A DNA stretch of 64,000 nucleotides from a virus: the IMG/VR virus record IMGVR_UViG_3300033405_000004, positions 32,001-96,000 of that record; one strand, 5' to 3'. The translations under genes were made by a program, and so were the position numbers. Under the pieces are notes generated by a model. That model did no database searches and was not told the origin of the DNA. It was given only the letters and a program-made list of their open reading frames with translations. Positions 6,813 through 52,527 of the stretch are shown piece by piece; the stretch's first letter is position 1; every line of letters begins with the position of its first letter.

Positions 6813-9164
6813 ATGGACCTCCCGAAGTTCTCGCTCATCTACACCTCGGCCCGCCCGCACCTGATCGCCGACGTCGTGCGGCGGTGGAAGGGCCGCGCCG
6901 CCCGCCCGGCCGACGCCCGCTTCGCCATCGCGGTGGACGACGAGGCCGCCCGCGCGGTCGCCGCCGGGACGGCGGAGGACGTGGTCGTGAACGGGGGGCC
7001 CAAGAACTGCGTGGCCGGCTGGAACGCCGCCGCCAAGCTCGCCGAGCGCCAGGGCCTGGGTGACGTGCTCATCGCCGTGGCCGACGACTTCGACGTGCCG
7101 GAGCGCTGGGACGACCTTCTGGCGGGCGTGGCCGCCCCCGGCTGGTGGCTCCAGGACTTCGCCGTCCGCGTCTACGACGGCTACAACTCCGACCTCTGCA
7201 CGCTCGGCATCGTGACCGCCCGCCGCTACCGCCGCCGCGGCTACCTCTTCTACCCCGACTACGAGTCGATCTATTGCTTTCCGCCCGACACGCCTATCCT
7301 GATGGCCAACCATACTCTTAAACCTATTGGTGACGTTGTCCCCGGCGATGTCGTGGTGGGTTCGGTTCGCAGGATTGGGTCGCGGGGCACTGGCAAGCAA
7401 AGGCGGGAGTTTCTTCAGCCGTCCCGAGTGCTGGAGGTCCATCGTAAGCGCGACAGGCTGGTGAGGCTTACGCTGAAGTCCGGTAAGGTGATCCTGTGCA
7501 CTCCTGACCATGTCTGGGCCTACTATGGGGATACCCGCGTGTATTTGCGAAACCAAGCTGGAACCGTGTTGCGTGGACAGGGGGGCCACCCGCGTCAGAA
7601 GGCCGACGGCCAGCTTTTGTACGGAACTCCGAGGATCGGGCGTCGGTTGGTGAAGGTTCTGGACATGCCCCCTTCGCCGCCAATGGACGATCAATCGGTT
7701 CGGGAACTGGGTTGGCTCGCTGGGATTTATGACGGCGAGGGGTGCTTTCCGACCATAACCCAGTCGTTCGACAAGAATCCTGAGGTGTGCAAGGAGCTGG
7801 AGCGCGTGCTGACTCGGTTGGGTTTCAGTTTCACTGTGAAAGGTTATCGTCGGAAATGGAGGGGCAAGCTGATCGAGCAGCACGGTTACTGCATCACTGG
7901 CGGGAGGCCGGAGTACTTGAAGTTTCTGTCGTGGGTCCGGCCCGTGAGAAGCTTCAAGCGAGCGGTGTCCAAGAGAATGTTCACATCCAGGTTTGGGGCG
8001 CCAGACGAGATCGTCAGCATCGAATCGTATGTCGATGACAAGGAAGTCTACTGCCTCTCCACGGAGACCCAAAACTACGTGGCGGACGGTTATCTGAGCC
8101 ACAACAGCGACACCGAGCTCACCTACTCGGCGGCCTACGAGAAGAGGCTCATCTCGGCCCCCCGGCTCCTCTTCGAGCACAGGCACCCCGACTGCGGCAA
8201 GCGCGCCCGGGACGCCGTCGACGAGGCCCACTCCTCCAAGGGCCGCTGGCAGCGCGGGGAGATGCTGTTCAAGTTCCGCATGAGCCAGAACTTCCCCATC
8301 GACGTGGAGCCGCCCGCTGAGCTGGACCGGTTCGCCCTCTACATGCAGGCCATCCGCGACGACTTCTGCCTCTACGACGTGGCCCGGCGCATCGTCGACG
8401 AGGGGAGGGCCGGCCCCGCGCCGGTCGGGCGCGTCTACCTGATGTGCCCCGACGAGTGGTGGTCGGGGCGGCCCCGCTCCCCCGCCGAGATGGCCGAGGT
8501 TCAGGCGGCCGCCAACCGGCTGTGCGCCGAGGGCGTCGACGCCGTGCTGGTCGACCAGCGCGTCGGGCCCGCCCGCGCCTTCTTCCGCACCCGGATCGAC
8601 GTAGAGACCGCCATGCGCAACGAGGCCCTCGACCGGATCTACGCCGACGGGTTCGCCCACGTCATCATCGCCGACGGCGACGAGTTCTGGCGGCGCGGCT
8701 TCTACGCCCGCCTCGCCGAGTGCGTCCAGACCACCGCCGGCGTCACCGCCGGCCTCTACACGGGCATGACGCCGGTCGTGGGCTACCCGGGCTACCCGGT
8801 GGAGGGCTCCACCGACAAGGCGACCGTCTACATCGCCGCGCCCCACCACCTGGTGGACTGCCGCACCGTGGCGGGCAGCCGGGCCGAGCTGCCGGGCCAC
8901 GACGTGATCCACTTCACCGCCACCCGCCGCACCTACGAGGAGGTCGTCCAGAAGCACCGCGAGAGCGGCCACTACGACGACCCCAATTATGACTTCGAGG
9001 GTTGGATCGCCAACACCCTCCCGAAGATCAAGCCTGGCTTCAGGAACGCCCACATGTACAGGCACTATCAGGTCTGGCCGCTGATCCGGGCCTGGAGGCC
9101 CGAGGAGCTGGCCGACCTGCCCGCCTGCGTGCTGCCGTACCTTGGGAATGGAACGGCCAGTTAA
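6813..9164 (+). CDS. Two-domain GT-A/GT2-like glycosyltransferase with intein
   Basis: SLIYTSARP, CVAGWNAA, IAVADDF (DxD-like), YPDYESIY|SDTELT after intein removal; second domain IIADGDEFW. Confidence 0.75.
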   Translation: MDLPKFSLIYTSARPHLIADVVRRWKGRAARPADARFAIAVDDEAARAVAAGTAEDVVVNGGPKNCVAGWNAAAKLAERQGLGDVLIAVADDFDVPERWDDLLAGVAAPGWWLQDFAVRVYDGYNSDLCTLGIVTARRYRRRGYLFYPDYESIYCFPPDTPILMANHTLKPIGDVVPGDVVVGSVRRIGSRGTGKQRREFLQPSRVLEVHRKRDRLVRLTLKSGKVILCTPDHVWAYYGDTRVYLRNQAGTVLRGQGGHPRQKADGQLLYGTPRIGRRLVKVLDMPPSPPMDDQSVRELGWLAGIYDGEGCFPTITQSFDKNPEVCKELERVLTRLGFSFTVKGYRRKWRGKLIEQHGYCITGGRPEYLKFLSWVRPVRSFKRAVSKRMFTSRFGAPDEIVSIESYVDDKEVYCLSTETQNYVADGYLSHNSDTELTYSAAYEKRLISAPRLLFEHRHPDCGKRARDAVDEAHSSKGRWQRGEMLFKFRMSQNFPIDVEPPAELDRFALYMQAIRDDFCLYDVARRIVDEGRAGPAPVGRVYLMCPDEWWSGRPRSPAEMAEVQAAANRLCAEGVDAVLVDQRVGPARAFFRTRIDVETAMRNEALDRIYADGFAHVIIADGDEFWRRGFYARLAECVQTTAGVTAGLYTGMTPVVGYPGYPVEGSTDKATVYIAAPHHLVDCRTVAGSRAELPGHDVIHFTATRRTYEEVVQKHRESGHYDDPNYDFEGWIANTLPKIKPGFRNAHMYRHYQVWPLIRAWRPEELADLPACVLPYLGNGTAS
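7275..8105 (+). mobile_element. Intein with LAGLIDADG-type endonuclease motif (277 aa)
   Basis: Begins CFPPDTPILMA, block B CTPDH, WLAGIYDGEG, ends NYVADGYLSHN|S; visibly lower GC than flanks. Confidence 0.92.
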
Positions 9165-9179
9165 GTTGTTCTAATAAGC

Positions 9180-9545
9180 ATGCACGATGACTTGATTGCC
9201 CTCGTCCTTTCGGCGACGGCGCTGGCGTTGTCTGCAGGCGCATGGGTCTGGATCATTTCCGCCGAGCGGAGGCTGCGGGCCGCGCTGGGTGGCGCGGCGG
9301 TGCGCCAGGCGATGCACGCGCACGAATACGTGGTCCAGTCGGTGAACTCCTACGAGGGCGGCGAGGTCGTCTTCGAGGTCGCGTGCGAGTGCGGCGCGGT
9401 CGAGACCCGGCTGGTGGACGGCTCGGCGGTCGCGGCCCTGGTGGAGCAGGCCGGGTCGACGTGCACGGCCGAGGAGGCCAGGGGCGCCCTCATGCAGGCC
9501 TGCGGGGACCCGGAGGCGGCCCTCGACCTCCTGCGCGGGGGGTGA
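9180..9545 (+). CDS. Membrane-anchored protein with C-terminal UBA/EF-Ts-N-like helical domain
   Basis: N-terminal TM helix, CxCG, then ..TAEEARGALMQACGDPEAALDLL. Confidence 0.55.
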   Translation: MHDDLIALVLSATALALSAGAWVWIISAERRLRAALGGAAVRQAMHAHEYVVQSVNSYEGGEVVFEVACECGAVETRLVDGSAVAALVEQAGSTCTAEEARGALMQACGDPEAALDLLRGG

Positions 9546-15629: not shown

Positions 15630-16418
15630 ATGCCCGCCCCGTCCACCCAGCCGCTGGTTCCCGTCCCCCAGGCCGACCACCAGGTAACGACCAGCGCCCA
15701 GTCCACCAGCACGCTCCCGGCCTACGGGTACACGATCGACCAGCTGTCCTCGTACATCAAGCGGTCGCTCGGCCAGCCCACGATGATCGTGGAACTGCCC
15801 CAGCAGAACATCCTCGACGCCATCCAGGACGCGCTCGTGCTCTACAGCACCTGGCGCCCCGTCCTGCGCTACGGCGCCATCCAGCTCCAGCGCGGCCAGT
15901 TCCAATACCTCGTGGGCGTCGACATGGGCCAGGGGCCGATCCGCGTCGACTTCGTCCAGCCCAACCCCGTCCCCGCCGAGCTGTTCTGGGGCAACCTCAT
16001 CGACCCGGCCCCGCTCCTGCGCAACGGCCTCGACGAGCTCGACAGCTTCCTGCGGTGGATGAAGGTCTGGATGCGCGTCACCTCGATCCAGCCCAACTGG
16101 ACCTACGACTTCGCCAACAAGCAGCTCCTCATCTGGAACCCGCTCGACCGCTACCAGGCCGGCCTCCAGTGGTACCAGCCCTACTCCGACACGAAGGGGC
16201 TGGACCAGTTCGGGGCCAAGTGGGTCAAGGACTACGCCTTCCAGAAGGCCCGCCACCAGTACGCCGAGATCCTCAGCAAGTACTCCGGGGCCATCCCCGG
16301 CCCGCTGCAGAACCTCCAGTTCGACCAGCAGCGCCGCGACAAGGCCGAGGCCAAGCTCAAGGAGCTGGAGGAGCACCTCCAGGCGGCGCAGATCTTCGCC
16401 CCGCTGGACATCGACTGA
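15630..16418 (+). CDS. Neck/head-completion protein (T4 gp13-like)
   Basis: YIKRSLGQP..IVEL...I.DAI.DAL and WVKDYA..KA......SKYSG.IPG patterns. Confidence 0.75.
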   Translation: MPAPSTQPLVPVPQADHQVTTSAQSTSTLPAYGYTIDQLSSYIKRSLGQPTMIVELPQQNILDAIQDALVLYSTWRPVLRYGAIQLQRGQFQYLVGVDMGQGPIRVDFVQPNPVPAELFWGNLIDPAPLLRNGLDELDSFLRWMKVWMRVTSIQPNWTYDFANKQLLIWNPLDRYQAGLQWYQPYSDTKGLDQFGAKWVKDYAFQKARHQYAEILSKYSGAIPGPLQNLQFDQQRRDKAEAKLKELEEHLQAAQIFAPLDID

Positions 16419-29287: not shown

Positions 29288-29624
29288 CGTCCCCGTCCAG
29301 GTCGAGCAGTCCAGGCGGAAGATCTGCGGGCGCTGCCTGGCGAGGTGCCCAGGCTTCCTCTCCGGCTCGCTCCGGCTGGACCTGGCGGCGTCCCGCTGCC
29401 CGCACCCCGCCGGCGCCCGGTGGGCCCCGTTCCTGCCGGGGGCGCCCGTCGTCCCACCCACGCTCGGCGCCGGGACGGCCTTTTCCTACCTCGCGCGGCC
29501 GGTGGCCAGGGTCGCCGACGCCGTGCTCAGGACCAACCTCGCCAACTGCCCGGGGTGCGCCGACCGCAAGGTGCGGTGGGACAGGAAGGTGCCCGACATA
29601 ATCCATCCGTGGCGCCGTGGTTAG
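29277..29624 (+). CDS. Cys-rich hypothetical protein
   Basis: CxxC...CP...CxxCxxRK. Confidence 0.6.
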   Translation: MVRDVPVQVEQSRRKICGRCLARCPGFLSGSLRLDLAASRCPHPAGARWAPFLPGAPVVPPTLGAGTAFSYLARPVARVADAVLRTNLANCPGCADRKVRWDRKVPDIIHPWRRG

Positions 29625-29631
29625 TTAGGGC

Positions 29632-31356
29632 GTGGCCGATCAGGTAACCCAGTTCAACTTCGTCGACAGGTCTTTCGCCAACCCCGTCGCCTGGGAGTGG
29701 GACTTCGGCGACGGCGCCACCTCCGACGCCCAGAATCCGTCCCACGCCTACCCGTCGGGCACCGGGGTGTACCTCGCCCGGCTGACCGCGTCGGCCCTGG
29801 CCTGCGGCGGCGGCCTGACCAGCGGCACCGTGTGGCACCCTGTGGTCATCCGCAACGTGCAGGTGTACTCCTCCACGATCGTCACCGGCGTGACCTACAT
29901 CGGCGGCTTCGTCTGGTACGGCTTTTACCCCTACACTTACACCGGCTTCGACGGCGTGAACGTGCCCGACCGGTACCTGACCAAGACGGTCTCCGGCTCC
30001 CAGAGCCAGGACCAGTACCCCGACGGCTACATCCTCCCGCCGATGGGCAACATCACCATCGGCCAGCTCGGCGGCTCGGTCGAGATAGACCACTCCACCG
30101 GCGCGGTCGTCAGCAACACCATGGTCGGCACGCAGACCTTGATCGGCAACTTCTGCACCGGCCTTTCCTGGCGTGGCTCCTACGGAGGCTCCACGGCGAC
30201 CATTTCCTACCAGGTTTACGGCAGCCAGATCGAGGACTTCCTGGTCGCCGGCGGCACCGTCGTCCTTGAGCCCACGGTCAAGCAGTACGTCGTGTCGCCC
30301 GTCCCCTTCCCGACCGGCGGGGGCTACGTGTGCACCTACTGCGACAACGGGGTGTGGGGCCACAACAACGACGACCCGGACCCGTCCGACACCGGCTTCG
30401 ATCCGCCGACGGAAGTCTTGTCGAACAAGATGACCTTGGCCGAGGCGGCGGCCAACGGCGGCGCCACGCAGGTCCCCTGCACCTACAGCTCCAGCGTGTC
30501 GAGCTTCAACCCGGCCACGGGGGCCATGAACTGCACCGCCTCAACCCTCACCATCGGGTACCTCAAGCCGAGCACGACCGGCCAGTTCCTGGTGACGCTC
30601 ACCTACAACGTGCAGGCCATCGGCGGGGGCCCGACCACCACGCTGACCAAATCGTACGCTCAGACCGTCGGCGTGGGCGGCTATCTGACCAGCTTCTCGG
30701 TGGACGTCCCGATGATGGTGGGCTACACGGTCACGCTGGCCTCGTGCGTGGTGCTGGACATCCTTGAGTGCTCGGACGACTTCGAGGAGCTCACCAGCCA
30801 AAGTTGGTATGGCAACCTTGCCGCGGGCTACCCGGTGACTGCGAACGGTACGTACGCCCCCGTTTTCGGCTCGGTGCAGCCCGCGGCCGAGTGCAGCTCG
30901 GACTGGGAGGACGCCACCTCGTCGGGGCCGATTCTCACCGACCCCTGGGGCTACTACTGGGCGGCGGCCGGCACGTTCTCGACTGCCAATTATTTGGAGG
31001 CCTCCGACGACTTTGAGGAGTGGGGCGGCTCGGGTTCGGGCGTGGTCGTCGCCAACCCGGTGGGCTTCTGGTCCAAGGGCCTCGGATGGGCCACCCCCTT
31101 CGGCTTCTTCCAGACGATAACGTACGCGGTCTGCACCGACGACTTCGAGAGCTACGCGGTCGGGGCCATCACTGACCTGAACAACACCTCGCAGGCCCTC
31201 AACAGCAACCAGAACTGGTCCGGCGACGGGGTCTTCGGCCTCGTCGTCTACCTGACGGCGTACGACGACTTCGAATCCTACCCGGCGGGGCCGATCGCGA
31301 CCCTGCCCGCGGGCGGCGGTTCCTGGTCCGGCGCGGGCGCCATCGGTTCGGCGTAA
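29632..31356 (+). CDS. PKD-domain virion/tail protein with DDFE repeats
   Basis: FVDRS..NPVAWEWDFGDGATS..QNPSHAY PKD signature; repeated xDDFE[ES] units. Confidence 0.8.
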   Translation: MADQVTQFNFVDRSFANPVAWEWDFGDGATSDAQNPSHAYPSGTGVYLARLTASALACGGGLTSGTVWHPVVIRNVQVYSSTIVTGVTYIGGFVWYGFYPYTYTGFDGVNVPDRYLTKTVSGSQSQDQYPDGYILPPMGNITIGQLGGSVEIDHSTGAVVSNTMVGTQTLIGNFCTGLSWRGSYGGSTATISYQVYGSQIEDFLVAGGTVVLEPTVKQYVVSPVPFPTGGGYVCTYCDNGVWGHNNDDPDPSDTGFDPPTEVLSNKMTLAEAAANGGATQVPCTYSSSVSSFNPATGAMNCTASTLTIGYLKPSTTGQFLVTLTYNVQAIGGGPTTTLTKSYAQTVGVGGYLTSFSVDVPMMVGYTVTLASCVVLDILECSDDFEELTSQSWYGNLAAGYPVTANGTYAPVFGSVQPAAECSSDWEDATSSGPILTDPWGYYWAAAGTFSTANYLEASDDFEEWGGSGSGVVVANPVGFWSKGLGWATPFGFFQTITYAVCTDDFESYAVGAITDLNNTSQALNSNQNWSGDGVFGLVVYLTAYDDFESYPAGPIATLPAGGGSWSGAGAIGSA

Positions 31357-31365
31357 TTAAAGCGT

Positions 31366-32136
31366 ATGGCTGAGATTTACCAAACTCTCGCCCTGGAGAA
31401 CGCCCTCATCCTAGAGTCGAGGGAGTACATGCTGCGGCAGTTCAACTTCCAGAACGCCGGCAACCCTTGGACCGAGATGCGCATGGGCATGCTCTACGCG
31501 GGCGTCTCGTTGACGAACGACAACGTCAACTCCGCGGCTGAGGACGTCGTCGTCTCCAGCGCCGCCGACCGGATAGCCTTCGGGATAAAGGATTCGGGCG
31601 CGGCGATCCCCGGCACGACTGGCTCGCCTAGCTCGTGCCTCTTCCTGGGGGCCACCACCGCCCTTGACGCGGTCGTGTTCCACGTGCCCAGCTCCTACGT
31701 CAACGTCGAGGGGGGCGGCCAGAACAGCTTTGGTAGCTACGGGGTGGGGGGAAACTTGGCGGCGTGCGGGGCCGTGGACGCCAGCTACATCAGCGGCTAC
31801 AATGCCGAGTACCTCGACCGGATGCTCTTCCCCACGGTGGCCAGCGGCGCCAACAACTACTGCGGGTTCTACGCGCTCAGATTCGTAATCGCCAACCAGG
31901 GGCTGGCCGCGCAGACGGTGACCATATCCGACTCCACCTCCCAGCCCGTCGGGGTGCCGTACACGGTGGCCGCGCTGCGGACCCTGATCAACAACGCGAG
32001 CTACCAGAACGCCCGGGTGATCGCCTGGAACAACGGCTCGACCGCATACGCGATCCCGAACTGCTGGTTCCTGCGGCTCCCGTTCTACAACAACCGCATC
32101 CGCATCTCGGCGCTCGACATGATCATGATCAGCTAG
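31366..32136 (+). CDS. Putative tail/receptor-binding protein, paralog A
   Basis: Thr/Gly/Asn-rich beta-type sequence; shares N- and C-termini with paralog B. Confidence 0.7.
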   Translation: MAEIYQTLALENALILESREYMLRQFNFQNAGNPWTEMRMGMLYAGVSLTNDNVNSAAEDVVVSSAADRIAFGIKDSGAAIPGTTGSPSSCLFLGATTALDAVVFHVPSSYVNVEGGGQNSFGSYGVGGNLAACGAVDASYISGYNAEYLDRMLFPTVASGANNYCGFYALRFVIANQGLAAQTVTISDSTSQPVGVPYTVAALRTLINNASYQNARVIAWNNGSTAYAIPNCWFLRLPFYNNRIRISALDMIMIS

Positions 32137-47816: not shown

Positions 47817-49349
47817 ATGAAAAGCCCATCCACTCCACCCGCCCCCAAGAAGCTCCACCCGCTGGACGCCGCGAGGCGCGCCGGCGTCCCCCTGCTGGCC
47901 TACGAGACCAGCGACCCCCAGGCCACCATCGAGGGCTGCACGCGGGCCCTCAACTCCAAGCTCGACGAGACCCCGGTCCTCCGCTGGGACTACGTCCGGG
48001 GGCTGGTCGGCCTCAACGACCTCGGCATCCAGGTGGCCAAGAAGCTCGCGCCGCAGAGCCCGATGCAGGCCGCCGAGCCGCGCGCCTGCCTCCAGGCCCT
48101 CGCCGCCTGCGCCGAGCCGAAGGTGCTCTGCTTCTGGCTCAACGCCCACCGCTACATCAGGGACGTGGCCGTGGCGCAGGGCCTCTGGAACCTGCGCGAC
48201 GCGTGGAAGGTCCACGGCTCCACCCTCGTCCTTTTGTGCCCCGCCATGCAGCTGCCCGACGAGCTGTCCCACGACATCGTCGTCGTGACCGAGCCGCTCC
48301 CCACCCCGGAGGAGATCGGCGTGATCGCCGACCGCATCGCCGAGGCCGCGAACATCAAGCTGCCCGACGAGGACAGGCCGAAGATCATCGACACCCTTTT
48401 GGGCATCTCCGCCTTCGCCGCCGAGCAGTCCCTCGCCATGAGCATCGTCAAGAAGGACGGCAAGTGGGGCGTCGACCGCGACGCCCTGTGGGAGAGGAAG
48501 AGGAAGATGGTCGAGCAGACCCCCGGCCTCTCCGTGTGGCGCGAGACCACCACCTTCGACGACCTCGGCGGGCTGGAGAACATCAAGGGCTTCATGACCC
48601 GGATACTCAAGAGCGGCAAGAACCCCGTCAGGGCGGTCGGTTTCGTCGACGAGATCGAGAAAATGTTCGCCGGAGCGGCGGGCGACCTGTCCGGCGTCTC
48701 CCAGGACCAGCTTCGCGTGTTCCTCACCGAGATGCAGGATCACAACATCCCCGGCATCATACTGATTGGGCCCGCAGGCACGGGCAAGAGCCACATCGCC
48801 AAGGCCGCCGGGGCCGTCGCCGACGCCGAGGTCCTCAACATCGACACCGGGGCCATGACCGGCTCCCTCGTCGGCGAGTCGCAGGCCAAGATCAGGAAGG
48901 CCTTCCAGACCCTCCACGCCGTCAGCCAAGGCAAGTCCCTCGTGGTGGCCACCTGCAACAAGATCGCGGCGCTGCCGCCCGAGTTGCGCCGCCGCTTCAC
49001 CCTCGGAACCTTCTTCGTCGACCTCCCGTCGGACAGCGAGCGCAAGGCCATCTGGAAAATCTGGCTCAAGAAGTACGGCTTCGCCGAGGACTCGAAGCTC
49101 CCCGCCGACGAGGGCTGGACGGGCGCCGAGATCAAGGCGTGCTGCGACGTGGCCTACCGCACCAGCATGGACCTCGCCGAGGCCTCCACCTTCGTCGTCC
49201 CCGTCTGCCAGTCCGCCGCCGACCAAATCGAGGCCCTGCGCAAGCAGGCCAACGACCGTTTCATCTCCGCCAGCAAGCCGGGCATGTACCGCTACGTCGA
49301 GCGCGCCGCCCCCGCTCTCCCCACCCACCGCAAGATCGACCTGAACTGA
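47817..49349 (+). CDS. AAA+ ATPase (Ycf46-like)
   Basis: FDDLGGLENIK, GPAGTGKS, VATCN, LPPELRRRF, FFVDLP, WTGAEI; promoter TTTACA-17-CAGATT upstream. Confidence 0.9.
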   Translation: MKSPSTPPAPKKLHPLDAARRAGVPLLAYETSDPQATIEGCTRALNSKLDETPVLRWDYVRGLVGLNDLGIQVAKKLAPQSPMQAAEPRACLQALAACAEPKVLCFWLNAHRYIRDVAVAQGLWNLRDAWKVHGSTLVLLCPAMQLPDELSHDIVVVTEPLPTPEEIGVIADRIAEAANIKLPDEDRPKIIDTLLGISAFAAEQSLAMSIVKKDGKWGVDRDALWERKRKMVEQTPGLSVWRETTTFDDLGGLENIKGFMTRILKSGKNPVRAVGFVDEIEKMFAGAAGDLSGVSQDQLRVFLTEMQDHNIPGIILIGPAGTGKSHIAKAAGAVADAEVLNIDTGAMTGSLVGESQAKIRKAFQTLHAVSQGKSLVVATCNKIAALPPELRRRFTLGTFFVDLPSDSERKAIWKIWLKKYGFAEDSKLPADEGWTGAEIKACCDVAYRTSMDLAEASTFVVPVCQSAADQIEALRKQANDRFISASKPGMYRYVERAAPALPTHRKIDLN

Positions 49350-49368
49350 AACCCGAACCTTCCCAACC

Positions 49369-49779
49369 ATGAGTCACATAGAAACAAGCTCCGTCGTAAT
49401 CAAGAACCTCGACGCCCTCAAGCGGGCGTGCGAGAAGCTCGGCCTGGCCTTCAAGGAGGGCCAGGACCACTACCGCTGGTGGGGCACCCGCCACGGCGAG
49501 TCGGCCTACGGGGGCCACTGCGACCACGCCATCCGCGTCCCCGGCGCCGACTACGAAATCGGCGTGACCAAGGCCGCGGAGGACACCTGGGTGCTCGCTC
49601 ATGACCCCTACTACCAAGGCGGGCTGCAGGTCCTCAGCGACCCCGGCTCGACCGGGCTGGAGAAGCTGTACGACGCCTACTCCGCCGAAGTTCTCAAGGC
49701 CGAGGCGTGGTCGAAGGGCTACCGGGTGGAGGAGAGCTTCACCGAGAGTGGCGAGATCAAGCTGGAGGTCTTCACCTGA
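49369..49779 (+). CDS. DUF1257 (Ycf35-like) protein
   Basis: MSHI......IKNLDALKRAC..LG...YEIGV...Y....L...A...GY. Confidence 0.75.
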   Translation: MSHIETSSVVIKNLDALKRACEKLGLAFKEGQDHYRWWGTRHGESAYGGHCDHAIRVPGADYEIGVTKAAEDTWVLAHDPYYQGGLQVLSDPGSTGLEKLYDAYSAEVLKAEAWSKGYRVEESFTESGEIKLEVFT

Positions 49780-49844
49780 TTGTAAAACGTCATAAACATT
49801 TTGTTGACTCACCACCCCTCAACGTCCATAACCATCATATCGCA

Positions 49845-50045
49845 ATGGAACAGAAAATCACCTTCATCATAGCCCACGGCAAGGTCAAGATCGAGGCCCA
49901 CGGCTTCATCGGCCCCGCCTGCGAGGCGGCGACCAAGGCCTTCGAGGCCGCCCTCGGCGGCGAGGTCAGCGACAAGACCAAGAAGCCGGAGTACCACCAG
50001 TTCACCAGCGAGTCCCAAGGCGAGAGCGCCAAGCAGGGGTTCTGA
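49845..50045 (+). CDS. DUF2997-like protein
   Basis: GKVKIEAHGFIGPACEAATKAFEAALG...KPEY. Confidence 0.8.
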   Translation: MEQKITFIIAHGKVKIEAHGFIGPACEAATKAFEAALGGEVSDKTKKPEYHQFTSESQGESAKQGF

Positions 50046-50046
50046 A

Positions 50047-50310
50047 ATGCGCGCCGTGTTCATCATCGGGGGAAGGAAGGTCACGGCTCTGGCCGGTGGC
50101 CCCCTGTCCCTCGCGGGCCTCGGCCCCCGCACCACTCGCCGGGTCAGCCGTGTTGAGTTCAATGGCGTGACCAGCCTGTGGGAGGTCCTCGACCCCGTCG
50201 ACCGCGCCCTGCCCGCCCTCTTCACGCACGCCGACTACGACATCTGCCTCCGCTGGGAGGCCGACCACTTCAACGCCGTCCTCGCCAGCAACCCCGCCGC
50301 ACTTCGATGA
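50047..50310 (+). CDS. Hypothetical protein typical of AAA/DUF1257 modules
   Basis: LG....RRVSRVEF......W. Confidence 0.65.
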   Translation: MRAVFIIGGRKVTALAGGPLSLAGLGPRTTRRVSRVEFNGVTSLWEVLDPVDRALPALFTHADYDICLRWEADHFNAVLASNPAALR

Positions 50311-50675
50311 GCCTCGACAAACCCATCCTCACGCGCATCCCCTTCCGCTCGCAGAGCAAGCCGGAGAACAGCTACGAGACGATAGTCTACACCGACCTCA
50401 GCACCAGTTGTAACTGCCGGGGCTGGTGCATCGCCAAGAACGGCATCCGCGAGTGCCGCCACACCATTCAAGTCGAGGAGAGCATCAGGAGCGGCCTGCT
50501 CCAGCTGGACCCGCAAAAGATCGCGTGGTCGGAGGTCAGCCGGAAGATGCAGGAGGCGAAGAACGTCCTGACTGGCGGCGTCGCCCCGTCCATCCCCAAC
50601 GCCGTCCCCGCCAGAAAGTCTAGGAAGCCCTCCGGCCCCGCCCCCATCCGTAAGTTCGACCTGACCGAGGGCTGA
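50307..50675 (+). CDS. SWIM Zn-finger protein with PIRKFDL tail
   Basis: SCNCRGW...CRH. Confidence 0.75.
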   Translation: MSLDKPILTRIPFRSQSKPENSYETIVYTDLSTSCNCRGWCIAKNGIRECRHTIQVEESIRSGLLQLDPQKIAWSEVSRKMQEAKNVLTGGVAPSIPNAVPARKSRKPSGPAPIRKFDLTEG

Positions 50676-50696
50676 ACCTTTCCATCCAATCCATCC

Positions 50697-51608
50697 ATGA
50701 CCCTCCAACCCGAAGCTGCCATCCTGCGACAGGCGATGCTATTCAGCCTGACGCGCCACGCGTGGTCGAACCGCCGCGAGGGCGACAAGACCGCTATCGA
50801 GACCACCGCCGACAAGAAGAACCTCAACATGACGAAGCGGCTCCTGAACTGCAAGGAGCTCGACGCCGTCAACGAGCACCTGAACGCCATCTACGAGTGG
50901 TGCTTCAGCCACGCGATGCAGTCCAGGACCCGCAAGGGCATCTACTTCGTCAAGCGGGACATGATCCCTGAGTTCGAGGCCCGGCTGGCCGAGGCCAACC
51001 GGAAGCTGCGCGAGGATCTCGTGCCCGCCCTCGTCGCCGCGTACCCCGCCGCCCGCGAGTCCATGCGGCTCCCCGCCGAGAACGGGGGCCTGGGCGACCT
51101 CTTCAAGGAGAGCGACTACCCCACCGCCGCCGAACTGGCCAAATCCTTCTACGTCGAGTGGTCGTGGCTGGCCCTGTCCGTGCCGAACGAGCTTCCCGAG
51201 GAGGTTCGCCAGCGCGAGGTCGCCAAGCTGCGCGAGAGCATGGAGGCGGCGCAGCAGGAGGTCGTGTACGCCCTCCGCGTCGGCTTCAAGAAGCTGGTCG
51301 ACCACGCCGTCGAGCGGCTCACGCCGAACCCGGACGGCAGCGTCAAGGTCCTCCGCGAGAGCACCCTCACCGGTAACTTCGAGCAGTTTTTCGAGGCCTT
51401 CCACGCCCGCGACCTGATGGGCGACTCCGAACTCAGCGCCCTCGTCGACCAGGCCCGCGCCATCGTCAAGGACATGCCCGACTCCGAGAAGCTGCGCAAG
51501 CGCCGCAGCCTGCTCTCTTCGACCGCCGCCTCCTTCAAGAAGGTCGGCGACGTGCTGGACACCCTCATCATCAACACCCCCATCCGCAAGTTCGACTTGG
51601 AGGCCTGA
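50697..51608 (+). CDS. Helical protein (DUF3150-like) with PIRKFDL tail
   Basis: GIYFV, LG.LF..SDYP; module context. Confidence 0.7.
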   Translation: MTLQPEAAILRQAMLFSLTRHAWSNRREGDKTAIETTADKKNLNMTKRLLNCKELDAVNEHLNAIYEWCFSHAMQSRTRKGIYFVKRDMIPEFEARLAEANRKLREDLVPALVAAYPAARESMRLPAENGGLGDLFKESDYPTAAELAKSFYVEWSWLALSVPNELPEEVRQREVAKLRESMEAAQQEVVYALRVGFKKLVDHAVERLTPNPDGSVKVLRESTLTGNFEQFFEAFHARDLMGDSELSALVDQARAIVKDMPDSEKLRKRRSLLSSTAASFKKVGDVLDTLIINTPIRKFDLEA

Positions 51609-51821
51609 ATGAGCGACTTTAGACTCTACGTTGTCTTTATTACCCTGCCGGACGGTACGCGTCGCTATTTTAAGGGCCATCGGACTCCGGCGATTAAGAG
51701 CTTCCGTGGTCGCGTCAAAGCTAGCCAGATTGGCGTGTGCCGCGGTCAGGCCGAGGGCCTGCGGGGCATGTACTCCGACCTGAACGCTCAGATTGAACCC
51801 CGAGACGCAGTGGAGGCCTGA
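51609..51821 (+). CDS. Small hypothetical protein, lower GC
   Basis: GGAGG SD upstream; flanked by 11-bp direct repeats. Confidence 0.55.
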   Translation: MSDFRLYVVFITLPDGTRRYFKGHRTPAIKSFRGRVKASQIGVCRGQAEGLRGMYSDLNAQIEPRDAVEA

Positions 51822-52039
51822 TGCCGCTGATCAAGAAGTTCCACGACGCCGAGATCGAGCCGGTGCTGGAGGCGGTCCGCTCCATCGTGAGGAAGCTGCC
51901 GCAGCGCGCGAATCGCGTCCGCATCCCGCCCGGCCTCAGCCCCGATCAGGTCTATTACATCGAGCATGGCCACTACCCGCCCAGGAAGGAAAAACCCAGG
52001 AAGCCCATCCGCAAGTTCGACTTGGAGGATCGCCAATGA
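51821..52039 (+). CDS. Small basic protein with PIRKFDL tail
   Basis: TGATG coupling. Confidence 0.65.
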   Translation: MPLIKKFHDAEIEPVLEAVRSIVRKLPQRANRVRIPPGLSPDQVYYIEHGHYPPRKEKPRKPIRKFDLEDRQ

Positions 52040-52527
52040 CCCCCTTTCAACAGGCTGAAATCCCCGCCTCCGAGCGAGCGGCCACCCGCGCTTCCATCCT
52101 CGAAGCCCACCGCAGGGGCGAGCTGCTCCCCGGCAAGACCGAGGCCGAAGTCGTGGCGGAACTGGACGACGTCGACCGCGAGGACGCCGACGCGGTGTAC
52201 TGGCGTAACGACCTCTACCAGGTGCGCGTGTGCCCCGTCGGCCCGCCGCGGTCCGGCTGGCCCCCGATGGTCCACCTGAGCATCAAGCGGCTCGACCGCC
52301 AGCCCATCCATGACTGGCGCGACCTCCAGGAGATCAAGAACCGGCTGGTCGGCCCGGAGTGCGAGGCGGTCGAGCTTTACCCCGCCGAGAGCTGCGTGGT
52401 CGACTCGGCCAACCAGTTCCACCTGTGGTGCCTCGGCAACGCCGGCCAGCGCTTCCCCTTCGGCTTCCAGGAGCGGCTGGTCACCGACCTTTCCGTTCAC
52501 AAGTCCAAGAATCGCCCCCGAACATGA
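52036..52527 (+). CDS. Conserved phage hypothetical protein
   Basis: HLSIKR....PIHDWRDLQEIKN..VGPE.EAVELYPAE...VD.AN..HLW. Confidence 0.75.
   Translation: MTPFQQAEIPASERAATRASILEAHRRGELLPGKTEAEVVAELDDVDREDADAVYWRNDLYQVRVCPVGPPRSGWPPMVHLSIKRLDRQPIHDWRDLQEIKNRLVGPECEAVELYPAESCVVDSANQFHLWCLGNAGQRFPFGFQERLVTDLSVHKSKNRPRT

Follow-up and report, generated by a model that had tools for sequence, protein, structure and literature searches.

The 64,000-nucleotide stretch considered here (the window) spans positions 32,001 to 96,000 of the virus record IMGVR_UViG_3300033405_000004, a large soil phage sequence of 157,322 bp with a G+C content of 67.7% and a completeness estimate of 69%, and carries a tight row of nine + strand genes (47.8-52.5 kb of the window) that encodes an AAA ATPase together with its DUF1257-like, DUF2997 and DUF3150-like partners. 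In this record, eight otherwise unrelated proteins carry a peptide of the P-I-R-R/K-F-D-L/F type (the tag) at their very start or end, four copies being C-terminal, in this gene row, and four N-terminal, outside the window. The tag is terminal, selected at the protein level, conserved over three unrelated families of the module, and spelled differently from one lineage to another. On balance, and with some reserve, we favour the reading that it serves as a portable, short linear motif for docking on one common site of, or associated with, the AAA/DUF1257/DUF2997/DUF3150-like module.

A shared peptide at the termini of eight proteins

The tagged features are given below, in window coordinates for the C-terminal carriers and in genome (record) coordinates for the open reading frames (ORFs) tagged at the N-terminus; GC3 is the G+C content at third codon positions.

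47817-49349, + strand: AAA ATPase, 510 residues (PF00004, E = 3e-14), tail ending in PALPTHRKIDLN
49329-49343, + strand: tag of the ATPase, R-K-I-D-L, one residue ahead of the stop codon
50307-50675, + strand: SWIM-like zinc-finger protein, 122 residues, Pro-rich linker and tag (PIRKFDL at 50643-50663)
50697-51608, + strand: DUF3150-like protein, 303 residues, core partner of the ATPase, tagged (PIRKFDL at 51579-51599)
51821-52039, + strand: 72-residue ORF, lineage-specific, tag within the last 12 residues (PIRKFDL at 52004-52024; GC3 0.88)
Genome 6475/6502-6798, + strand: N-tagged ORF 1, start ..QTPIRRFDLGD, then PPPPPEP
Genome 6814-7656, + strand: N-tagged ORF 2, 280 residues, start AAIRKFDLEE, then PSAPRPKKPK
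Genome 15869-16117, + strand: N-tagged ORF 3, start MARPIRRFDFGD, then AAPPSS; GAGGAGG upstream
Genome 29503-29826, - strand: N-tagged ORF 4, start MSDPIRRFDLDG, then RPRPPAG

Directly before their stop codons, the ATPase reads PTHRKIDLN (frame translation), the SWIM-like protein PAPIRKFDLTEG, the 303-residue protein TPIRKFDLEA and the 72-residue ORF product KPIRKFDLEDRQ. These four copies had been described in an earlier, sequence-only reading of the window and were all located where it had placed them, together with the linker, rich in Pro, Ala and Lys, that precedes the tag in three of the four carriers (the exception is the 303-residue protein, whose tag directly follows the last helix). 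That reading took the tag to consist of these C-terminal operon copies, which stand, but its confinement to them does not, as shown by the four N-terminal carriers elsewhere in the record.

The pattern [RK][RK][FILVMYW]D[LIFMV] occurs 14 times in a six-frame translation of the entire record, and lies within eight residues of a stop codon only in the four C-terminal copies. The more specific IR[RK]FD[LF] is observed seven times. Residue frequencies predict 0.005 occurrences, and 30 third-order Markov simulations produced none. All eight matches to R[RK][FI]D[LF] in the record are the tagged protein termini. A chance origin of the tag copies is excluded.

The four N-tagged frames have GC3 values of 0.87-0.96, comparable to those of confirmed operon genes; their products gave no match in Pfam or PHROG, and zero homologues were found for the 280-residue one. 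The product of the first N-tagged ORF (L026:6475-6798) contains a PVPVPVPV repeat, has a hydrophobic stretch at its C-terminal side, and is possibly membrane-associated; a TGTAAACA box lies just 5' of the ATG of this ORF. A further N-tagged candidate, MVVVRRFDLG.. in the relative G002, was set aside as a likely artefact of off-frame translation.

Selection on the peptide and probable spread of its DNA

The eight copies differ in the codons used (CGC/CGA/CGT, AGG/AAG, CTC/CTG/TTG/TTC). Because they vary at synonymous sites, selection acts on the peptide itself, in agreement with what had been proposed from the sequence at first; for example, the copy in the SWIM-like gene departs from a pair of 25-nt repeats only by CGT/CGC and CTG/TTG, both synonymous. 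The two repeats are as follows.

51579-51603, + strand: 25-nt direct repeat, copy 1, CCCATCCGCAAGTTCGACTTGGAGG, at the 3' end of the gene of the 303-residue protein
52004-52028, + strand: 25-nt direct repeat, copy 2, in the 72-residue ORF, identical to copy 1

The identity of these two copies, already pointed out in the sequence-only reading, is exact. They share TTG, a rare codon that makes up 6% of those for Leu, and two independently encoded peptides would coincide in this way with P ~0.02 in this gene pair; both end in GGAGG, 5-7 nt upstream of the next start codon, and they bracket a 70-residue ORF and the body of the 72-residue one. The tag of the 72-residue protein is best explained by a recent DNA duplication of the 3' end of the gene of the 303-residue protein, which would have given rise to a new tagged protein. 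On this explanation, the identity over 25 nt is evidence for the way in which the tag spreads, and not for selection.

Conservation of the tail in three families of the module

In 28 homologues of the 303-residue protein (30-63% identity), KPxR[RK]F[DN][LF] followed by acidic residues is kept, and R297 is invariant. A profile search with this protein returned 7,576 cluster representatives at E ≤ 1e-3; among the best 150 of them, the tail was found in the last 20 residues of 78 with a strict pattern and of 116 with a loose one, the strict matches giving the logo [DE][RK]PxR[KR][FI][DNS][FL][DE][ED]. In the AlphaFold2 (AF2) model (predicted local distance difference test, pLDDT, of 84.7), residues 291-303 are coil, with pLDDT below 50 at 297-300: as modelled, the tail is an unstructured coil with no contact with its own protein body. 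Fold searches with the model returned generic helical bundles only (Foldseek E ≥ 0.1; VIA Z ≤ 9.2 over 164-298). The relationship to DUF3150 is indirect: the window protein has no Pfam match to PF11348 at E ≤ 10, one of the 28 homologues matches this family (7.8e-5), and the nearest Atlas clusters, mostly viral, contain PF11348 in 18-43% of their members. A single-protein scan of viral contigs with the 303-residue protein, scans of genome contigs with A1 or A2, and blastn against the phage collection found nothing.

The SWIM-like protein keeps the tail in eight of eight homologues, with R115 and F117 invariant, and in the same eight C35, C37, C50 and H52 (CxCx12-16CxH) are invariant as well. 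It has no Pfam SWIM match (PF04434) at E ≤ 10, and its naming is supported only indirectly.

The ATPase scores 54 bits against PF00004 (cut-off 21.2), its best sequence matches in the PDB are p97, VAT and Cdc48, and an NCBIfam scan named only generic AAA families. Its AF2 model (pLDDT 93.4) aligns over D1 and D2 of p97, Cdc48, Rix7 and NVL (Foldseek E ~1e-12, 550-600 columns). Because the model aligns over both AAA domains and only the second half of the protein matches Pfam AAA, the predicted structure is a tandem p97/Cdc48-like AAA fold, with a degenerate D1-like half and an active AAA half. In this model, pLDDT falls from 83 (residues 491-500) to 67 (501-510) in the tail. Within the last 16 residues, [RK][RK] plus a hydrophobic residue is present in 91 of 120 ATPase homologues, the full pattern in 58, and R505 is invariant across 71; typical ends are TGRKIEV, GRKMEL and TRRIQL. 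The motif is therefore kept in homologues of the DUF3150-like, SWIM-like and ATPase families alike, the conservation for which the sequence-only reading had suggested looking. It is not peculiar to the analysed phage, and marks the tails of the DUF3150-like protein and of the ATPase throughout their families.

Two features of the ATPase sequence stand apart from the tail. A Walker-B-like FVDEIEK (residues 276-282, window 48642-48662) is encoded before the Walker A motif GPAGTGKS (residues 318-325, window 48768-48791), an order that departs from the canonical Walker A to Walker B arrangement, and the sensor-1 (ATCN) and Arg residues (PELRRRF) come directly after the pore-loop region.

Distribution of the module and spelling of the tag

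The module was surveyed in 11 phage or metagenome loci and in 80 loci from genome collections, the latter almost all from metagenome-assembled genomes (MAGs) of Acidobacteriota, with up to four module copies per MAG. The ATPase is accompanied by a DUF1257-like gene in 72 of these 80 genome loci (custom hidden Markov model), by a DUF2997-like gene in 71 and by a DUF3150-like gene in 66; the core partners are present in all complete phage loci but the most distant one (L021, in which no DUF1257-like gene was detected), and the SWIM-like and 87-residue genes are common in the module as found in phages. Homologues of the ATPase number at least 2,493. The genome loci (L040-L119) show the module to be abundant in Bryobacterales and Terriglobia MAGs, on contigs of up to 3.6 Mb, and examples of multi-copy MAGs are MFD05580.bin.1.127, Bin_54_2 and co.spades.DASTOOL.2.5kb_066. 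This distribution suggests that the hosts belong to the phylum Acidobacteriota and that the module is carried on integrated elements.

The tag is spelled RKFDL in three proteins of the analysed phage and RKIDL in its ATPase. In L004 and L006, it is RRFNF (two copies), with RRFGS or RRFSN in the ATPase, in L017 RKFDF (two copies), and in L010 R.FQF (two copies), while in Acidobacteriota loci a DUF3150-like tail of RKFRF, RKFRL or RKMRL is paired with G(R)RAFR in the ATPase. In 38 of 46 loci, both tails have a residue of the same class (basic or not) between their two hydrophobic positions. This matching within genomes fits, without proving it, a co-evolving receptor encoded by the same element.

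A proposed docking motif for the module

As a docking motif, the tag would have the general form basic-basic-hydrophobic-x-hydrophobic followed by acidic residues (specifically P-I-R-[RK]-F-D-[LF]), and, placed on a flexible tail or linker at either terminus, would attach its carrier to a common receptor site; its alternating hydrophobic positions suggest that the peptide binds in extended form, along a groove. The receptor would be encoded by the module, either as the double ring of the ATPase or as a sub-complex of DUF1257 and DUF2997. Of the tagged proteins, the DUF3150-like and SWIM-like ones might then be constitutive partners or adaptors, and lineage-specific ORFans (here the four N-tagged proteins and the 72-residue one) might join as additional clients or cofactors; further tagged proteins would arise when a short stretch of DNA at the end of a tag-encoding gene is duplicated. 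The weaker tag on the tail of the ATPase itself could compete for the site, or occupy it. Since four copies are N-terminal and 1-12 residues can follow the motif, a free C-terminal carboxylate cannot be required, and the N-terminal copies already narrow the binding mode. The core of the initial inference, a portable docking tag organising the AAA-DUF1257-DUF2997 module, is supported by the conservation, the synonymous variation and the coil tail described above.

Several observations weigh against docking on the module. A scan for charge-swap columns brought out no binding partner, favouring neither the AAA protein nor the DUF1257 or DUF2997 proteins over a control (1.2, 2.4 and 3.1 matches per 100 columns, respectively, against 1.6 in the control, the body of the 303-residue protein, with effectively two clades). 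The match in spelling is confounded by shared descent and, for the 72-residue protein, also by DNA duplication, and the four N-tagged proteins are ORFans for which no homologues were found. An Acidobacteriota subclade of ATPases ends in GPLTVMPPS[KR]SE[AV] while its partner still carries RKFRF, so that the ATPase's own tag is dispensable. Finally, the pore-loop position of the ATPase reads GSLVGES, with Leu-Val where classical unfoldases have an aromatic residue, and the term 'unfoldase' is therefore not established for this protein.

A broader proposal, which we put forward tentatively and which may well prove wrong, is that phages and mobile elements carry a self-contained 'tag-and-machine' system, in which a Cdc48-like double-ring ATPase and its DUF1257/DUF2997/DUF3150 partners would read an address peptide at either end of proteins, and lineages would re-spell this peptide and duplicate it onto ORFans. 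If so, the machine would be reprogrammed for changing viral proteins, as a viral and ubiquitin-independent counterpart of the p97-cofactor network. A shared and portable address peptide would, for its part, be a clear example from bacterial viruses of hubs wired through motifs, with short duplications as the route of evolution. It also offers a direct handle for experiments: a seven-residue bait should pull out the receptor, and the list of tagged proteins in each phage would name partners or clients. The AAA/DUF1257/DUF2997/DUF3150 gene set is very common, both in phages and on Acidobacteriota MAG contigs, and in the literature searched on DUF1257, DUF2997, DUF3150 and Ycf46 with phage we found mentions in gene lists only, with no description of the tail and no function for the module. 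What this genome adds is the N-terminal copies and a 25-nt duplication apparently caught in the making of a tagged ORF.

Comparison with known short motifs

One close parallel is with motifs that bind the beta sliding clamp, whose consensus is Q-aliphatic-x-[LM]-[FL] or Q-aliphatic-x-[LM]-x-[FL], and which are N-terminal in Hda and C-terminal in polymerases (PMC11139829). In both cases, a linear motif of 5-7 residues, often followed by acidic residues, lies in the disordered N- or C-termini of unrelated proteins, clamp motifs addressing one pocket of a single hub. The placement of the tag is of this type, beside Pro-rich linkers in four N-terminal and four C-terminal copies and in a coil in the 303-residue model. 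The sequence is not: the eight copies read [RK]-F/I-D-[LF]-[EDGTN]-x, none having the Gln or the final hydrophobic residue of the clamp consensus. The tag has Arg or Lys in place of Gln, its carriers are not replication or repair proteins, and it tracks an AAA+ module and not a clamp.

Short peptides also serve in other AAA+ systems. The HbYX tails of PAN, Rpt and archaeal Cdc48, and the GQYL tails of mycobacterial Mpa and Bpa, lie at the extreme C-terminus and need a penultimate Tyr and a free carboxylate; like the tag, they are shared by an AAA+ ATPase and unrelated non-ATPase proteins, and they insert in pockets of their partner. Docking of this type was rejected for the tag, which is followed by 1-12 residues, lacks Tyr and is N-terminal in four copies, and no proteasome-like partner is seen with the tag module. 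The cofactors of p97/Cdc48 use the VIM, VBM and SHP box motifs to bind the p97 N domain, the VBM being rich in Arg and Lys with hydrophobic residues. The likeness lies in a Cdc48-like ATPase whose unrelated partners vary but have short linear motifs in common; however, the model of the phage ATPase has no separate p97-type N domain, the motif sequences differ, and the ATPase is itself tagged. Tat signal peptides, with an N-terminal S/T-R-R-x-F-L-K followed by a hydrophobic h-region, were also considered and rejected, as the tag is spaced RRF and not RRxF, its N-terminal copies are followed by Pro-rich or charged linkers, and half of the copies are C-terminal.

As for the module itself, its ATPase may be related to the AAA ATPase Ycf46. 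In cyanobacteria and plastids, DUF2997 and Ycf35 (DUF1257) form a gene cluster (PMC4284462). The small partners are the same (DUF2997 above the Pfam cut-off, DUF1257 via a homologue) and their function is equally obscure, but in phages and mobile elements the set is extended by a DUF3150-like and a SWIM-like protein and by the shared tail.

Alternative explanations

Could the tag mark substrates instead of docking partners? The Cdc48-like ATPase would then recognise it directly, at the pore or at the D1 face, as a degron or engagement signal, and would unfold, extract or disassemble the carriers. This is unlikely, even though the ATPase has a p97/Cdc48/Rix7-like tandem fold and flexible linkers at either terminus, such as those that bear the tags, suit the initiation of unfolding; ClpXP degrons likewise occur at both termini. 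A substrate signal would be a strange thing to find on the ATPase and its constant partner, and both are tagged; the module shows no evident protease partner, and the Leu-Val of the pore-loop position is not aromatic.

It is quite improbable that the receptor is instead a hub of the host, such as the beta sliding clamp, an AAA+ protease or its adaptor (ClpX/Lon), RNA polymerase or a similar protein. The R-[KR]-[FI]-x-[FL]-acidic core is conserved over a very large family, and its placement at either terminus parallels clamp-binding motifs (PMC11139829). No beta-clamp or gp45 match was found in G000-G003; neither near-complete relative encodes a clamp, so that any clamp involved would be that of the host, and no PolB was found in the record, which is 69% complete. 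However, the tag lacks Gln and has an acidic or small residue at the required last hydrophobic position of the clamp consensus, its carriers are not recognisable replication or repair proteins, and its spelling changes markedly between lineages (FDL, FNF, FRF, MRL, IVM), the motif tracking the module.

Still less credible is an address for capsid loading or virion targeting, comparable to the capsid targeting sequence of T4 internal proteins. Phages do use shared peptides for head loading, and in T4-type targeting the cargo is found in virions and the tag is cut at a prohead-protease site; moreover, the operon sits between tail- or baseplate-like genes. This explanation suffers from the absence of an evident protease-site pattern ([LI]-x-E) after the tag, and from the fact that the ATPase module to which this tail belongs is also present on Acidobacteriota MAG contigs, some of them Mb-sized, and in phages of 57-77 kb.

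An element that acts as DNA and is translated only incidentally, be it a recombination site, a regulatory repeat or the carrier of a Shine-Dalgarno sequence, would account for two copies identical over 25 nt with a GGAGG end 5-7 nt before a start codon, but is already largely refuted, and has next to no probability left, as the remaining six copies vary synonymously and keep the peptide, no start codon follows the N-terminal copies, which are internal to genes, and homologues at 30-60% identity retain the peptide and not the DNA.

Neighbouring genes and further observations

The other genes of the row, none of which is tagged, are the following.

49369-49779, + strand: DUF1257-like protein, 136 residues, untagged core partner (PF06868, E = 0.012)
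49845-50045, + strand: DUF2997 protein, 66 residues, untagged core partner (PF11211, E = 2e-12)
50047-50310, + strand: 87-residue protein, untagged, conserved in most phage versions of the module
51609-51821, + strand: 70-residue ORF, untagged, between the 25-nt repeats, with atypical codon usage
52036-52527, + strand: DUF7694 protein, last of the gene row

The DUF2997 protein passes its Pfam cut-off (PF11211, 47.2 bits against 24.1). The DUF1257-like protein stays below the gathering cut-off of PF06868 (16.3 bits against 22.2), which its homologue in L013 exceeds (23.3 bits). Of the names given in the sequence-only reading, DUF2997 is thus upheld (E = 2e-12), DUF1257 passes in this homologue but not in the window protein, and DUF3150-like and SWIM have indirect support only. 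The 87-residue protein has tblastn matches in L001/L004, L006/7, L008, L013 and L003/5, and no family match in Pfam and NCBIfam scans. No homologue of the 70- or 72-residue ORFs was found in related loci; GC3 in the former is 0.66, against 0.88-0.96 in its neighbours, and this ORF was probably inserted recently.

In several phage loci, a small ORF in the slot that DUF2997 occupies elsewhere has a His-rich tail, for example HSHDHEHGGEHHTH (L002:4837-5055, L018:9178-9537, L020:4050-4256, L021:3787-4011, L012:30-224); the one copy scanned, L002:4837-5055, had no Pfam match, and the tail composition suggests metal binding. The DUF1257-like gene is duplicated in some loci (L004:12533-13854, L008:9361-10706): G001 has two copies, and L008 as many as three.

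The ATPase subclade with the deviating tail is represented by L040, L044, L045, L050, L052, L058, L059 and about 20 more genome loci, in which the ATPase ends near 9450. Its tail, in full D-L-x-G-P-L-T-V-M-P-P-S-[KR]-S-E-[AV] at the stop codon, is well conserved and devoid of the basic motif, and in these loci DUF1257 and DUF2997 lie upstream rather than downstream. Finally, an Acidobacteriota ORF located between the DUF2997 and DUF3150-like genes (L043:10312-10914, L053:10615-11538, L090:10990-11592) starts with MLIHGF..NGPG.R.V.YFQG, which we take to resemble the N-terminus of radical-SAM activating enzymes.

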